A stretch of DNA of 64,000 bases. Source: Anolis carolinensis (lineage: Eukaryota). The stretch covers positions 167,292,897 to 167,356,896 of the forward strand of contig NC_085845.1 of assembly GCF_035594765.1 (NCBI RefSeq), given 5' to 3'. Shown here in pieces: positions 8,396-15,161 of the stretch. The notes beneath the pieces are model-generated. The model made no database searches. It saw nothing but the letters and a program-made list of their open reading frames with translations, and was not told the DNA's origin. Within the stretch, counting starts at the first letter, position 1. Each line of letters opens with the position of its first letter. The translations under genes were made by a program, and so were the position numbers.

Positions 8396-9111
8396 TGTGC
8401 CGTCCGCCGGACAATAAAAAACTATAAAACTGAAACGTGCTGTCCTTTATCCGGGCGAACTGCAAATCCCTATAAGCTGTCCTATAGATATTGAACGACT
8501 GAGTCTGGATAACTTCAAAAAAGGATGTTTATTCATACAAGGTTGTAAACCTGGCACAGATCTTAAAGTTGCAGAAAATGAAACAAATTTCTATAGGTTT
8601 TAGGTACAGAATTATCCCTGGTTCCAGAAAGCAAAGGTGATTATAAAACCACTATACCCTAATCACGCTGCCTATATTAGAAGGAGAAACTCTTTCCTTC
8701 CCTATCTTTACAGCAAAGATTAGTTCTAGAAGCGACAGAATAACCCTGCTCCTATAACTAGATTTCCTATTCCAGATCAATATAATTCAATACTTATCTA
8801 ATTTGGATAGGCTTAGATTGGCCTGGTTTTGAGGATGATTTGTCCCAGTTAGCCTTGCACAGCTCCAGCACGTTGTAAGACTATAGCCAGAATGAAGCTC
8901 CAAAATGGAGACTAGACCCTGGTAAAAAGGGCGGTCCTAAGATGTTGCACTCTTTGACCAATCACTGCAAAGAAAACTGCAGCCAGCTATTGCAGATTCC
9001 AAGCCACTTTTCCTAGGCTTTTGCAGCCAGAGGCTCAAACAAAATGCAAAGGAGGGAAAACAAACAAATGACCAATAGGTAAGGCAAACCATCGTCCTGG
9101 GGGACGGAACA
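8396..9111 (-). repeat. 3' LTR of the BEL/Pao element
   Basis: Direct repeat of 14446-15161 (offset 6050); no mismatch found on visual comparison. Confidence 0.96.
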
Positions 9112-9199
9112 CTCCCCGCTAAATTCCCAGGATGTGGGAATTTACCAATCAAAAACATACAAACACCTTTGTATACACAACAATAAAACAGTATAAAAC

Positions 9200-9497
9200 T
9201 TACACACTTTGGACAAGCAACACGAGATTGCTGGTTGGTCTGTCCAGGACAGACATTTTGTCCTTACTATGAGTCTTTACCTGAACTTTTCTAACCTTAC
9301 CGTCAGGGCAAGGAAAGGTCTTTAGTGTAATGCCCATAGGCCAGGCATAGCGGGGCAAGTCTTTGTCCTTTGGCAACACAAGGTTTCCCACCTTGGCATT
9401 GTCCTTTGGGGTTTGCCAGAGTCTTCTGGTTGGAAGCTGGCTTAAGTATTCGGCCTTCCACCTCTTCCAGAAGTGGTTGGCTAAGGTCTGCACATGC
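9200..9497 (-). pseudogene. Out-of-frame BEL integrase C-terminal domain
   Basis: HVQTLANHFWKRWKAEYLSQL...WPMGITLKTFP..DGKVRKVQVK...RP..NLVLL is the typical BEL pol C-terminus; a deletion joins it out of frame to SDCGTNF. Confidence 0.85.
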
Positions 9498-12400
9498 AAA
9501 ATTGGTGCCACAGTCCGACCAAATTAACTTAATCGGCCCTCTGAGGGCTACAAACTTTTTCAAGGCATTTATGAATGATGAAGTGTCCATTCCCTCTGCA
9601 ACCTCTATATGGACAGCTCGTACTGACAAACAAGTAAACAAAACCGCACATCTTTTGTTATTTACAACACCACCCCTGGTTTTCCTAGTGACAACCTCCC
9701 AAGGACCAAACACATCGATTCCCACATGGGAAAAGGGTGGGTCTGTCAAAGTCCTATCCTGAGGTAGTTCTGCCATCAACTGACTTTGACAGTTTCGCCT
9801 AAGGCGCCTGCATTTAACACATTTGAAAATACAACTGTTGACCAACCTTTTGGCATTAACTACCCACAGACCTTCATTTCTAAGGGCTGCCTCAGTTAGA
9901 GTTCTACCCTGATGATGGATCCTTTCATGGTGATGCCGAACGAGCAGCAATGCAGTGTGACTATTAGGGGGTATGATGATGGGGTTTTTTATGCACGCCT
10001 TGAGTTTAGCTTTGGCTAACCTTCCTCCAACTCTCAAAATACCCTCCTTGTCTAGAAATGGGTTTAACTCATTTAGAAGACTTTGATTAGGGATGTTGAG
10101 CCCTTGCTCTAGCCTAGCTATTTCCTGCTTGAAAGCAGATCTCTGCACTGACTTGAATATGACGCTCTTAGCCTTTATCATATCCTGGACCTGTAAAGGC
10201 TCACTATCTTTGCAAGCTAAACGATGTATAAGCCTAGCTACTGCTCTAAGAAGACTGTGCCACTCCGAAAAACGTTCAAAACGGTGTGGTTCCAGGCAAG
10301 ATCTTTGGCCCATCTTGATTTCTGTGGTTGATTTGCAGGCTTTCACCTCTGCACTTCGTGAGACTTGAGCATTCATAATGTCCGAAAACCTTTGCTCATC
10401 TTTCGAGAGCGCTGTGGCTTCGTCTCTCTCAGAGACTTTGAAAATGGAGGAATACTCTGGAGTTATTGCTTGGCAGTAGACTGAGATGTGACTTAGGCAA
10501 CTGCGCACAAGTGTAGGACGTCCACCTTTAAGCACCTGTGCTTGATTGGAGTCCAACGACGATGGTGGGTGCATCTTGTTTATGCACACTGGGCCTGTAA
10601 CTGTCCAGCCTAGTGGTAGCAGCTGAGCAATGGGCGCCCCTGGAGGTCCCTTAACTTGGTCGTTCACATAGAACAAGTTCGGACAGTCCGCACCAAGCAG
10701 AAGGGCAATGTCCACATCTGGACGGAAAGCAGGTATGGCATTCTTTAATCGTCGCAAATGTGGATGAGCCTCCACAACTTCTCTAGTTACAATTTGCCTT
10801 TTGTTCCGGGGAATAGAGGAACACTCAATCAGGTCTGGCAACTTGAACTGCCTCTTCTGGTCGCAAGAGGAAACAACAAAGCCGGATGCTATGCGACCCT
10901 GCAACTTCTTTTTTCCTGCACACGTAGTCATAGTGTAGTCAACCATCTTGGTTTTAAGGTCAAACATGCGGAAGAACTCTGGAGTAGCCAGGGAGGCGTC
11001 GCTCTGTGAATCCAGGGCCACATAGAGTCTCTTTCTAAGCCAAGGGCTCTTGGCTGGATATACATCCGCTAGGCAGATAGGATGACAAACTCTGTACTGG
11101 TGCGAGTCAGAACACAGCTCTGTACAGGCGACTGCTGAAACTTCCACCTGCATCTGCGGTGCAGCCGGCTTGTCGGTATCTTCGCTTGCTGTCCTTTCCT
11201 TTGGTGAAATGTCCCCTTTGGTGTGGGAGACACCATTGGAGTTGTGCATTGCGGTGCAATGCTTGACGCTGTTGCATTTCTCGCACTTGACGTTTTCTTT
11301 GCAGTTGGATGCAAAGTGCGGAGTTGCTCCACAGCATCTAAAGCAGATTCCCTGCTTTTGAACTAGCTGTTGCCTTTCTTTGTATGTCTTCCTACTAAAC
11401 TCCCTGCAGTTGGCCAAGCTGTGAGGCTTTTGGTGAATAGGGCAAAGCAACTCTTTTACCTCCGACCTGGGTTCATCAGTCTTGTGTTGAGTTTCGACTG
11501 CCTTTACGCTGACAGGTCTATTGGCCTCTCTAGGTGGTTTCTTGTCCACTTCAGGTGCCTTCCCTGGATGGATCCCTTGATATAAGGTGGGCAGGCCCGT
11601 CTGTGGATCATTCCTTTCCCTGGCCGCTCTGGTGATGAACTGGACCAGATGGGAAAACGGTGGGTACGCCTGAGAATGGGCCTCCTTGTAGTTGAAGACC
11701 TCCTGTCCCCAGCGTTCTTGCAAAGTGAAGGGCAGCTTGGTCAAGATCTGCCTCTGGGACAGGTGCTGATCGAGGCACTTCAAACCGGGCAGTTCTGGAT
11801 TCTCCTTGGCCGACTCTAATTCCGTAAGGAGATCGCTGAGGTCCCACAAGAGTTTGAAGTCTTTGAGTTTCAAAGCTGGGAACCTTTGGAGCTTGTCCAT
11901 AAGAGATGCTTCAATCTCTGTGCTGGCCCCATACCTCTGCTGCAACCTGGCCCAGGCCTTTTCCAGGGCTTTGTCGGGATCGGCTACGTGGGCTGAATAT
12001 ATTCTCTTAACTTGAGAAGATGATGCTGGACCCAACCAGGCGCCTAGCAGGGTCAGCTCTTCTTCAGGCAACAACTTTAAGTCTCTAATTGCCCTCTTGA
12101 AGGTAACCTTCCAGAGAAGGAACTCTTCAGGCTTGTCTGAAAACTTTTCAACTCCCTTGTCTTTGAGGTCTCTTTTGGGACTTCTAAGGATCGAGACGAG
12201 TTGGGATTCTGGCGTCGACGGGAACAAGTGTGGCGTTGGCTGCTGTGGGGAGAAATCCCACCATACTCCTTGCGTCGACCTTTGGTCTTTTGGAGGGATG
12301 ACATCGTCTGTAGATGGACCGATGGTTCCCTTTGGACTTGCTTGTAGGGCCCAATTGGTGGTAGGCTTTGATGGTTTGGCTGACTGTTCAGGAATCTTAG

Positions 12401-13451: not shown

Positions 13452-13829
13452 TGTGTATTCTTAATAGCAAGTAAATTTACAACAAAGGCAAATGCAATAT
13501 ACCTGCAAGTAAATTTACAATAAAAGCAAATTCAATATATAATACAATTCACAGCACTTAACCATAGCAATATATATCACTAAGTAACTATACTTTACAA
13601 AGATTGTGACCTTTGGCGCCAAACTTTGGTAGGCAAGCTGCAAAATGCCAACTGACAGCAACTTGCCACTTGATACCTCCCTTGCCCGAGTGACGTAAAC
13701 TGCCAAAATGGCGACTTCGCCAAATTTTCAAGCACCTTGTGCTCCGCGGCTCGAGGCCTGCCGCCGAAGGAGCACCGAGGCTGGCTTTGGAAAGGAGGAG
13801 AGAAGAGACGCCTCCTCCCCGCTGTGAAG

Positions 13830-14018
13830 GGAGGTCACCACCGCAGGTCAATGAGGCAGGTCACCACCGCAGGACGATGAGGCAGGTCACCACCGCAGGA
13901 CGATGAGGCAGGTCACCACCGCAGGACGATAAGGCAGGTCACCACCGCCAGGCGATGAGGCAGGTCACCACCGCAGGACGATGAGGCAGGTCACCACCGC
14001 AGGACGATGAGGCAGGTC
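13830..14018. repeat. 26-bp tandem repeat (~7 copies) in the BEL 5' leader
   Basis: Unit ATGAGGCAGGTCACCACCGCAGGACG at 13851, 13877, 13903, 13929 (variant), 13955 and 13981, plus partial copies at both ends. Confidence 0.95.
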
Positions 14019-14445
14019 GAAGCCGGCCGAGTGCTCCGGCCGAACTCGCAGCAGCGTTGCCAGGCCTGTCCAGGTTCTAGCCTGGTTCTGGTGGGCTTCA
14101 CGCCTCAGAGCCAGCCAAAGAACTGTCGCTGGTGCTCCGCGGCTCGAGGTCTACCGCCGAGGGAGCCCTGGACGTTGCTGGGAACTGCACAGCCTGTGCA
14201 AACCCAGAAAGCCACTGGGCCACGTGCGCACACGCGAGCCAAATAGCAAGGAAATAGAGCCCCACTATTTGACTCCTTCAGGTCTGAGAGCGGGCTCCAC
14301 TGCCTCAGACGCTGGTAGAGTCTTTAGGTATGCAGACTGAGCTCAGGCGGAAAAGCCGCGGCCTAAACTAAACTTCCTAAACTATAAAAAACTATAAGCC
14401 GTGCAAGCTAGCTCAAGCGGAAAAACCGCTGATCTACCTCAAAAC

Positions 14446-15161
14446 TGTGCCGTCCGCCGGACAATAAAAAACTATAAAACTGAAACGTGCTGTCCTTTAT
14501 CCGGGCGAACTGCAAATCCCTATAAGCTGTCCTATAGATATTGAACGACTGAGTCTGGATAACTTCAAAAAAGGATGTTTATTCATACAAGGTTGTAAAC
14601 CTGGCACAGATCTTAAAGTTGCAGAAAATGAAACAAATTTCTATAGGTTTTAGGTACAGAATTATCCCTGGTTCCAGAAAGCAAAGGTGATTATAAAACC
14701 ACTATACCCTAATCACGCTGCCTATATTAGAAGGAGAAACTCTTTCCTTCCCTATCTTTACAGCAAAGATTAGTTCTAGAAGCGACAGAATAACCCTGCT
14801 CCTATAACTAGATTTCCTATTCCAGATCAATATAATTCAATACTTATCTAATTTGGATAGGCTTAGATTGGCCTGGTTTTGAGGATGATTTGTCCCAGTT
14901 AGCCTTGCACAGCTCCAGCACGTTGTAAGACTATAGCCAGAATGAAGCTCCAAAATGGAGACTAGACCCTGGTAAAAAGGGCGGTCCTAAGATGTTGCAC
15001 TCTTTGACCAATCACTGCAAAGAAAACTGCAGCCAGCTATTGCAGATTCCAAGCCACTTTTCCTAGGCTTTTGCAGCCAGAGGCTCAAACAAAATGCAAA
15101 GGAGGGAAAACAAACAAATGACCAATAGGTAAGGCAAACCATCGTCCTGGGGGACGGAACA
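14446..15161 (-). repeat. 5' LTR of the BEL/Pao element
   Basis: Matches 8396-9111. Contains CCAAT boxes (~15008, ~15122), a GC box (~14979) and a - strand AATAAA (~14577-14582). Confidence 0.96.

Follow-up and report, generated by a model that had tools for sequence, protein, structure and literature searches.

The mouse IAP I-delta-1 subtype carries a 1.9-kb deletion that joins Gag and Pol in frame; the fusion acts in cis and the subtype accounts for most new insertions, according to the passages of PMC6466679 that treat it; this subtype is the one reported precedent for cis-preference that we found. For BEL/Pao elements (Belpaoviridae), the profile of the International Committee on Taxonomy of Viruses (ICTV) gives long terminal repeats (LTRs) of 0.2-1.2 kb with a polypurine tract (PPT) upstream of the 3' LTR, a gag-pol order of protease, reverse transcriptase (RT), RNase H and integrase (PR-RT-RH-IN) in one or two frames, and a primer site of 18 nt that pairs with the 3' end of tRNA-Arg or tRNA-Gly, and it describes their replication as poorly understood and tRNA-primed (PMC8742986). 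In plant elements, a primer site complementary to the LTR is the signature used for predicting self-priming (excerpted text of PMC6317226), and Tf2 has the same arrangement of primer site and LTR (excerpted text of PMC5341516). How does a young element of the green anole compare with these systems? We analyzed a window of 64,000 nt from Anolis carolinensis (NC_085845.1, positions 167,292,897 to 167,356,896 of the forward strand), in which an LTR element occupies positions 8396-15161 on the minus strand. With a probability of about 0.8, we read it as a fresh insertion of an RT-less BEL/Pao element that would have borrowed its RT and RNase H, and whose own RNA would be translated in cis.

Non-autonomous LTR elements are common, and a single copy such as this is ordinary; the family to which it belongs, here called family A, is not. 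With more than 20 independent in-frame deletions, and with deletions at the integrase end as a control, the family offers a natural experiment in the cis-preference of LTR retrotransposons, and self-complementary primer sites in four families of one vertebrate genome make the ICTV statement on tRNA priming directly testable. What is new is the rule that 20 of 20 RT deletions keep the frame, with its internal control and a second family, and the four-family self-priming signature. Among the papers listed in searches of the open literature, we found no report either of all-in-frame RT deletions in a BEL family or of self-priming in BEL/Pao; Repbase or subscription papers may describe family A. 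A 397-copy BEL/Pao family of A. carolinensis, described by de la Chaux and Wagner in 2011 in a paper whose relevant passages mention neither RT loss nor priming, may be family A (PMC3118150).

Structure of the window copy

Both LTRs of the window copy end in TG...CA and match at 716/716 bases, and the element is flanked by a perfect target-site duplication (TSD). Its features, by window position and strand, are as follows.

8391-8395, no strand: left TSD, GGACT
8396-9111, minus: 3' LTR, 716 nt, same as the 5' LTR
9112-9123, minus: PPT next to the 3' LTR, identical in all sampled copies
9200-9489, minus: integrase C-terminal remnant (DUF5641), in another frame after the 386-nt deletion, decaying
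9303-13451, minus: one open frame of 1,382 codons counted from its first ATG, Gag - zinc knuckles - protease - truncated integrase
9490-9496, minus: join left by the frameshifting 386-nt deletion in the integrase, where undeleted copies show 6-nt microhomology
9497-10345, minus: pre-integrase linker, HHCC zinc finger (~9935-9810) and 5' part of the integrase core
10346-10353, minus: join left by the in-frame loss of 1,665 nt of RT/RNase H, repeat of ~8 nt, ends not GT-AG
11015, minus: protease LDSQS motif, within the single open frame
11444-11244, minus: zinc knuckles, within the single open frame
13827-14018, minus: leader array of 26-nt tandem repeats, repeat number differing among copies
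14435-14436, minus: hypervariable dinucleotide, positions 10-11 of the primer site, with 8 pairs seen among 131 copies
14437-14445, minus: putative primer-binding position, 9 nt, no TGG, invariant in 131/131 copies, complement of LTR positions 278-286
14446-15161, minus: 5' LTR, 716 nt, AATAAA at 14583-14578
14876-14884, also 8826-8834, minus: predicted self-primer in the LTR, predicted pairing probability 0.98-1.0
15162-15166, no strand: right TSD, GGACT

From stop to stop, the long open reading frame (ORF) spans 1,385 codons of the minus strand, 13460 to 9303, with its first ATG at 13451. Pfam finds DUF1759 (a Gag domain), rve and Integrase_H2C2 in it, each under the curated cut-off, and DUF5641 in a second frame at 9203-9523 (E 2.5e-23); RVT_1 and PF05380 have no Pfam match in the window copy. 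In an RT-bearing sister, PF05380, RVT_1, rve and DUF5641 stand together in a single frame of 2,114 aa. Relative to such a sister, 1,665 nt are missing in frame from the window copy and another 386 nt with a frameshift; the reference for deletions is L055, a natural RT-bearing copy. The 386-nt deletion begins 7 codons past the second catalytic Asp motif, takes out the HMGGVWE stretch and ends the long ORF ~100 nt short of the natural stop. The original prediction, made from the letters of the window, had described identical LTRs with a perfect TSD, an in-frame loss of RT and RNase H, and a second, frameshifting deletion in the integrase, and it is correct on this structure.

RT-bearing partners and classification

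Where would an RT-less element find its enzyme? A search with PF05380 gave 219 candidates, 150 of which were scored, and 20 copies were fetched. Seventeen belong to family A, with LTRs 95-99% identical to the window's, and the other three to a second family, B. RT is held by 15 of the 17 (12 with frames of ~2,080-2,140 aa to the natural stop, 3 integrase-deleted); the remaining two carry a 921-nt RT deletion. A 200-aa RT query found ~77 near-full matches at 94-100%, and full-length RT matches cluster at 94-100% with the next at 73% or below (best 150 of 201 candidates scored). The RT-bearing copies of family A are autonomous partners with a shared LTR, of the kind that the original prediction proposed to look for.

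The 716-nt LTRs and the purine tract before the 3' LTR fit a BEL/Pao element. The order PR-RT-RH-IN is found in the RT-bearing sisters with the shared LTR, of which the window copy is a deletion derivative, and the Pao-type domains PF05380, PF18701 and PF03564 are present. We take these three domains to be tied to BEL/Pao, in line with the Pfam description. For RT/RH, the best relatives come from ticks, fish, frogs and molluscs and are PF05380/PF18701 proteins (42-47% identity, one at 32%). The 18-nt tRNA primer site is lacking, with no TGG at the LTR edge, as judged from the sequence of the site and not from the host tRNA set. On its sequence, the element is BEL/Pao by protein descent and a variant in priming. 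Three sister families, B, C and D (L061-L063 and L191-L210), are likewise young BEL/Pao elements, with RT 52%, 73% and 71% identical to that of family A, respectively.

Copy number and age

The genome searched is a 1.85-Gb assembly of 211 contigs, with the window on contig C5. A 301-nt query over the RT junction gave 963 candidates, and the 40 scored were all ~100% identical. Genome-wide, the RT junction has 500 matches as an exact 40-mer and 615 as a 23-mer, the integrase junction has 441 pattern matches, and junctions of LTR and primer site number 896, i.e. ~896 proviral copies. An RT-core 19-mer probe has 68 matches. By these pattern counts, fewer than 1/10 of the copies hold the RT core and about two-thirds carry the 1,665-nt RT deletion. 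LTR-internal sites number 1,995 genome-wide, which, set against 896 proviral starts, leaves ~200 solo or orphan LTRs; this low solo-LTR ratio fits a recent burst.

We sampled 40 of the first 41 exact-junction copies listed on contig C1. Two LTR matches were obtained for 38 and 37 are full length; in the latter the LTRs are identical in 22, mean LTR divergence is 0.11% substitutions, and a 5-bp TSD is present in 35. The 386-nt integrase deletion is found in 21 of the 40, and the integrase is undeleted in 19. That ~900 copies are so young implies that the family is still at work as an insertional mutagen in this genome. The LTR of the window copy is 1-4% different from the LTRs of 20 RT-less copies with which it was compared. 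Cross-sample evidence came from contigs of public sequencing runs: the RT junction is bridged by contigs of runs X1, X5 and X14, from three studies, and the integrase junction by contigs of X5 and X14. A contig of run X17 follows the left flank to 8395 and then continues for 593 letters off the LTR, which fits an empty site there. Flank 7900-8385 is uncovered in X14, X15 and X5 though the LTR is covered, and this lack of cover is not evidence.

RT deletions keep the reading frame

RT-region deletions of at least 150 nt were counted over 137 aligned copies, among them a deletion sample of 60 of the first 100 listed RT-start copies (268 in all), consisting of all 15 copies of the second haplotype, described below, and 45 of the first haplotype chosen to avoid RNase H matches. 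The 23 deletion rows reduce to 20 distinct events, and all 20 are multiples of three. In the chance null, microhomology pairs of the same region are in frame at a rate of 0.34-0.40 (k = 3-7; 2/8 at k = 8), giving P ~1e-8 for 20/20 at a null of 0.40. A 21st RT deletion, 774 nt in L173, is in frame. The internal control behaves differently: deletions ending inside the integrase are in frame in 4/10. The RT deletions of family D are in frame in 4/4, all 10 of its partial-RT copies having a 603-nt deletion plus one of 1,089, 1,065 or 1,107 nt; the deletions of 1,065-1,107 nt lose the first catalytic motif of the integrase and keep the frame. Family C has a 552-nt deletion in frame and an 836-nt deletion out of frame, the latter ending near the integrase end. 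Short repeats or blunt joins are found at the eight RT-region junctions inspected, and the ends of the 20 deletions are scattered.

Where do the frames stop? This was scored in 136 copies (L160 being left out as the tandem neighbor of L159), and the start was findable in 133. A stop falls inside gag-protease in 17 of 118 RT-less copies, with no break common to two copies; two pairs of copies have the same gag-protease stop, with separate indels behind each. Shared early stops lie in the integrase only, at most 667 nt ahead of the 3' LTR. The 386-nt deletion makes 24 copies stop 194-195 nt before the 3' LTR, compared with ~91 nt normally, and a 13-nt integrase deletion common to 5 copies gives a stop 667 nt before it. 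The RT-less copies that do not carry the 386-nt deletion are open to the natural stop in 56 of 78 cases, and the whole integrase frame is kept in about half of the RT-less copies.

Two haplotypes, the second diverged under purifying selection

In sliding windows each copy is a patchwork of segments that are 0-4% or 10-25% from L055. From gag and protease through the RT stub, RNase H end and linker to the integrase, the second-haplotype segments show a synonymous divergence of ~0.2-1.8 with omega of 0.05-0.3. Because omega is 0.05-0.3 in every domain, the second haplotype is a second functional lineage and not a product of decay, and decay is ruled out as the source of the 15-20% gap to the RT-bearing copies. 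The difference between the window copy and RT-bearing copies is mostly this second, ~20% diverged haplotype under purifying selection. There are mosaics between RT-bearing and RT-less copies: the integrase deletion co-occurs with at least four RT deletions and is also found in RT-bearing copies. Older RT-bearing mosaics have linker and integrase from the second haplotype. No RT-bearing copy with a second-haplotype protease was found among the 15 second-haplotype copies in the first 100 listed RT-start copies: 14 have a 1,992-nt deletion, and L073 is unaligned.

The original prediction had seen missense drift in the integrase remnant, and only part of this stands. The four altered motifs on which it relied (KRCAVLF, LIWSD, LPTRRLW and LVLPKD) occur in 18, 24, 35 and 14 of 136 aligned copies, and 18, 22, 33 and 13 of these, respectively, have the 386-nt deletion. 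Decay is present within integrase-deleted copies only, and most of the divergence is the second haplotype. The comparison of gag with integrase that had been proposed gave different nonsynonymous to synonymous ratios: in second-haplotype gag-protease, shared variants are 25:29 and singletons 42:13 (P 0.0016), and for integrase-deleted copies the integrase remnant has its shared variants at 15:3 (P 0.007 compared with gag-protease) and its singletons at 20:5.

The primer site

No TGG starts directly 3' of the 5' LTR. The primer site, found in 131 of 137 copies, is invariant at positions 1-9 in all 131, has 8 different pairs at positions 10-11, and is again near fixed at positions 12-24. Positions 1-9 are the exact complement of LTR 278-286, with fold pair probabilities of 0.98-1.0; the value for the 9-mer complement in shuffles is 0.0013, and such a complement exists for 10 of the 1,070 9-mers of the leader. 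Families B, C and D differ in primer-site sequence, and each has a 10-nt perfect complement from the LTR edge, so that each has its own self-complementary site; in B and D the sequence right after the complement is also variable. None of families A-D has a TGG at or near the LTR edge. The minus strand of family A is, by these sequence signatures, likely to be self-primed by its own RNA. Since the Tf1 RT adds non-templated bases (excerpted text of PMC3185545), one might guess by analogy that the variable dinucleotide is a trace of imprecise copying at the capped end of the primer. A primer built by splicing is unneeded, the complement being contiguous in the unspliced LTR of all four families. 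In L185 (~1785-1815), of family B, a second primer-site copy in the leader lengthens the LTR complement to 12 nt. L191 and L194, of family C, have the same 9 bases at the LTR end as family A, and their primer sites differ.

A different view of the site is that it binds a host tRNA or tRNA fragment, with the LTR complement acting as a leader-folding element only. The tRNA-Arg or tRNA-Gly site of the ICTV profile favors this (PMC8742986), and internal tRNA fragments would still be compatible as primers, for the search for TGG covers the LTR edge and not the host tRNA set. Against it, besides the lack of TGG, the pairing shifts letter for letter over four families, always from position 1, and the two variable bases break the would-be 18-nt site. 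We regard tRNA priming here as improbable.

Proposed mechanism and alternatives

Mobilization of the RT-less copies in trans is nearly certain, and here the original prediction, which held that the damage is older than the last transposition, is correct: the junctions are shared and RT-bearing partners exist. Its suggestion that the copy supplies Gag in cis gains population-level support from in-frame deletions and unshared gag-protease breaks. Its single non-autonomous lineage needs amending. The deletions are shared and RT loss is widespread, but 19 of the 40 sampled copies keep an undeleted integrase, so the integrase deletion is not a lineage mark, and the family is a swarm with at least 20 separate RT deletions.

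In the mechanism that we propose, RT and RNase H would come from the few RT-bearing sisters, which would also supply integrase to the integrase-deleted sub-type. The deletions may arise from template jumps at short repeats in reverse transcription. Such jumps belong to the general biology of retroelements. RT-less and RT-bearing RNAs would enter common particles; mosaics need two different RNAs in one particle, which is established for retroviruses and which we infer here, and shared particles would explain both the mosaics and the supply of RT to RT-less RNA. For minus-strand synthesis the RNA would use its own 5' end as primer, in the manner of Tf1. From the pattern of frames, it is very likely that each copy depends for its spread on translation of its own RNA in cis, through Gag-protease and on almost to the natural stop. 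Selection in cis would act to keep Gag-protease open and the stop close to its natural place, with no need for an active integrase; we lean toward the position of the stop, over integrase activity, as what is selected. An out-of-frame RT deletion would be lost by a stop 1.2-2.3 kb early, which could destabilize the RNA in a manner like nonsense-mediated decay or interrupt the transfer of the RNA, while it is being translated, to the Gag that it encodes; the evidence is compatible with either. More doubtfully, the family could be a split, mutually dependent system in which the RT-less majority gives excess Gag-protease and the RT-bearing minority the enzyme. A single-frame BEL element would make Gag and RT one to one, and particles would need an excess of Gag-protease; self-priming would ready every RT-less RNA for copying, and recombination would keep the halves compatible, with the second-haplotype protease almost only on RT-less copies.

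Several points weigh against translation in cis and self-priming as proposed here. Avoiding RNase H matches in the deletion sample enriches for deletions, though not for frame. Eleven of the 20 RT deletions were seen at a single site, so that their spread is assumed, and without two L146 deletions in a poorly aligned stretch the control becomes 4/8. Shared omega in the first-haplotype protease region is 0.62-0.77 on 3-7 variants, a weak test, and in first-haplotype RT remnants it is 0.46 in an underpowered and mixed test; shared linker variants gave omega of 0.25 in one test and only 2:2 in another, and shared second-haplotype variants may predate RT loss. As for priming, the family A complement of 9 nt is 1 short of the 10-bp rule in the excerpted text of PMC6317226, and a fully complementary dinucleotide is rare (2/131), which leaves the exact primer end unexplained.

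Could the frame be kept for an active integrase in cis, with Gag-protease-integrase as the working unit and only RT borrowed? Most RT-region deletions do end short of the integrase, most RT-less copies that escaped the 386-nt deletion are open to the natural stop, and a filter might act on a deletion at its first origin. The 441 copies with an integrase-cutting deletion, which include over half of the sampled RT-junction copies, nevertheless count against this, as do the near-neutral evolution of the remnant in integrase-deleted copies, the 13-nt frameshift common to 5 copies and the family D deletions that lose a catalytic motif in frame. Integrase-dead lineages refute it as a general rule, and we consider it unlikely. 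A pure trans parasite, for which LTR, primer site, packaging signal and PPT suffice and whose frames are open through youth, fares worse and is very unlikely. The copies are indeed very young, and gene-less trans-complemented endogenous retroviruses dominate new cattle insertions (in the relevant passages of PMC10924933). Youth explains few point mutations; it does not explain 20/20 and 4/4 in-frame deletions against the null, and private gag-protease breaks are common and never shared.

The deletions might also be spliced introns, the copies deriving from a subgenomic Gag-protease mRNA, and one possible reading of the 386-nt integrase deletion gives it GT...AG ends. The main RT deletion, however, keeps its junction repeat and has no GT-AG reading, and the repeats or blunt joins and scattered ends of the other RT deletions do not fit introns. 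The junction sequences rule out splicing as the origin of the RT deletion, and we hold splicing in general to be extremely unlikely. Finally, the original prediction had itself named junctions unique to this locus, through post-insertion deletion or misassembly, and LTR identity due to assembly collapse or gene conversion, as the findings that would speak against it. No point in support of such a single-locus artefact was found. Neither junction is unique, each occurring in hundreds of dispersed copies, the sampled copies have their own TSDs, contigs of other studies bridge the junctions, and the window LTR is distinct from those of the RT-less copies compared; the chance of an artefact is negligible.

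Sister families and other elements of the window

The sample of family D consists mostly of RT-deleted copies with open frames of ~1,490 aa. L188 (218-6166), of family B, has identical LTRs and a 1,381-aa frame, with ~3.3 kb of pol gone. L159 and L160 (contig C2, 28.72 Mb), which are 7 kb apart and have the same deletion and the same 7-nt frameshift, are probably a tandem duplication. No LTR pair was obtained for L172 and L177. Elsewhere in the window, 53429-55557 looks like a young Penelope-like element: its 592-codon frame has a YVDD motif that resembles that of an RT and a C-terminus of apparent GIY-YIG type, and an inverted repeat of 112 nt, with 99% identity, lies on either side (53514-53625 and 55446-55557). 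Around it, at 51876-57397, are repeated frame fragments of a long interspersed element (LINE)-type RT (YMDD motif), presumably RTE-like. A tandem array at 42462-43195, with about five units of 125-180 nt that each have an (ATT)n tail, looks like head-to-tail short interspersed element (SINE) or LINE 3' ends.

Comparison with known systems

Family A resembles Belpaoviridae in LTR size, PPT, single gag-pol frame, PR-RT-RH-IN order, and PF05380 and PF18701, and differs from their profile in that it has no 18-nt tRNA primer site and more than 90% of its copies have no RT core. In having a primer site complementary to its own LTR and no tRNA match at the LTR edge, it is like Tf1/Tf2, the Tf1/sushi group and the plant elements Tcn1 and TAR, as far as the available portions of PMC5341516, PMC6317226 and PMC3185545 describe them. 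Those elements are Ty3/gypsy or Ty1/copia, whereas here the signature, seen at the level of sequence, is in BEL/Pao.

The original prediction had proposed an animal analogue of plant Gag-only elements, and a mouse element proves nearer. Plant TR-GAG and GAG/PROT-retaining LTR elements also keep Gag (and protease), have no RT and are semi-autonomous, and their families are often patchy and decayed, in the parts of PMC13570524 that concern them. Family A, unlike TR-GAG, keeps its protease, and about half of its RT-less copies have a whole integrase frame (19/40 sampled copies have it whole, and the window copy in part); its autonomous partner is present, nearly identical and recombining. In the C- and D-type elements of cattle ERVK[2-1-LTR], too, a small autonomous minority (15%) drives a defective majority, and there the D-type has no functional genes, whereas family A keeps open Gag-protease frames (excerpted text of PMC10924933).

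This is most reminiscent of mouse IAP I-delta-1, with which family A shares an internal deletion that leaves Gag fused in frame to the end of Pol, a non-autonomous state and dominance among new insertions; IAP I-delta-1, an endogenous retrovirus, has a single deletion, which runs through gag and pol (PMC6466679, in the passages on that subtype). Family A is not an IAP, its domains being BEL/Pao, and in contrast to that subtype it keeps the whole of Gag and protease and has at least 20 independent in-frame deletions, with 4 in family D. Saito et al. 2008 is reportedly the primary paper on IAP I-delta-1. As far as its frames and deletions indicate, family A works like IAP I-delta-1, which is the nearest known case.

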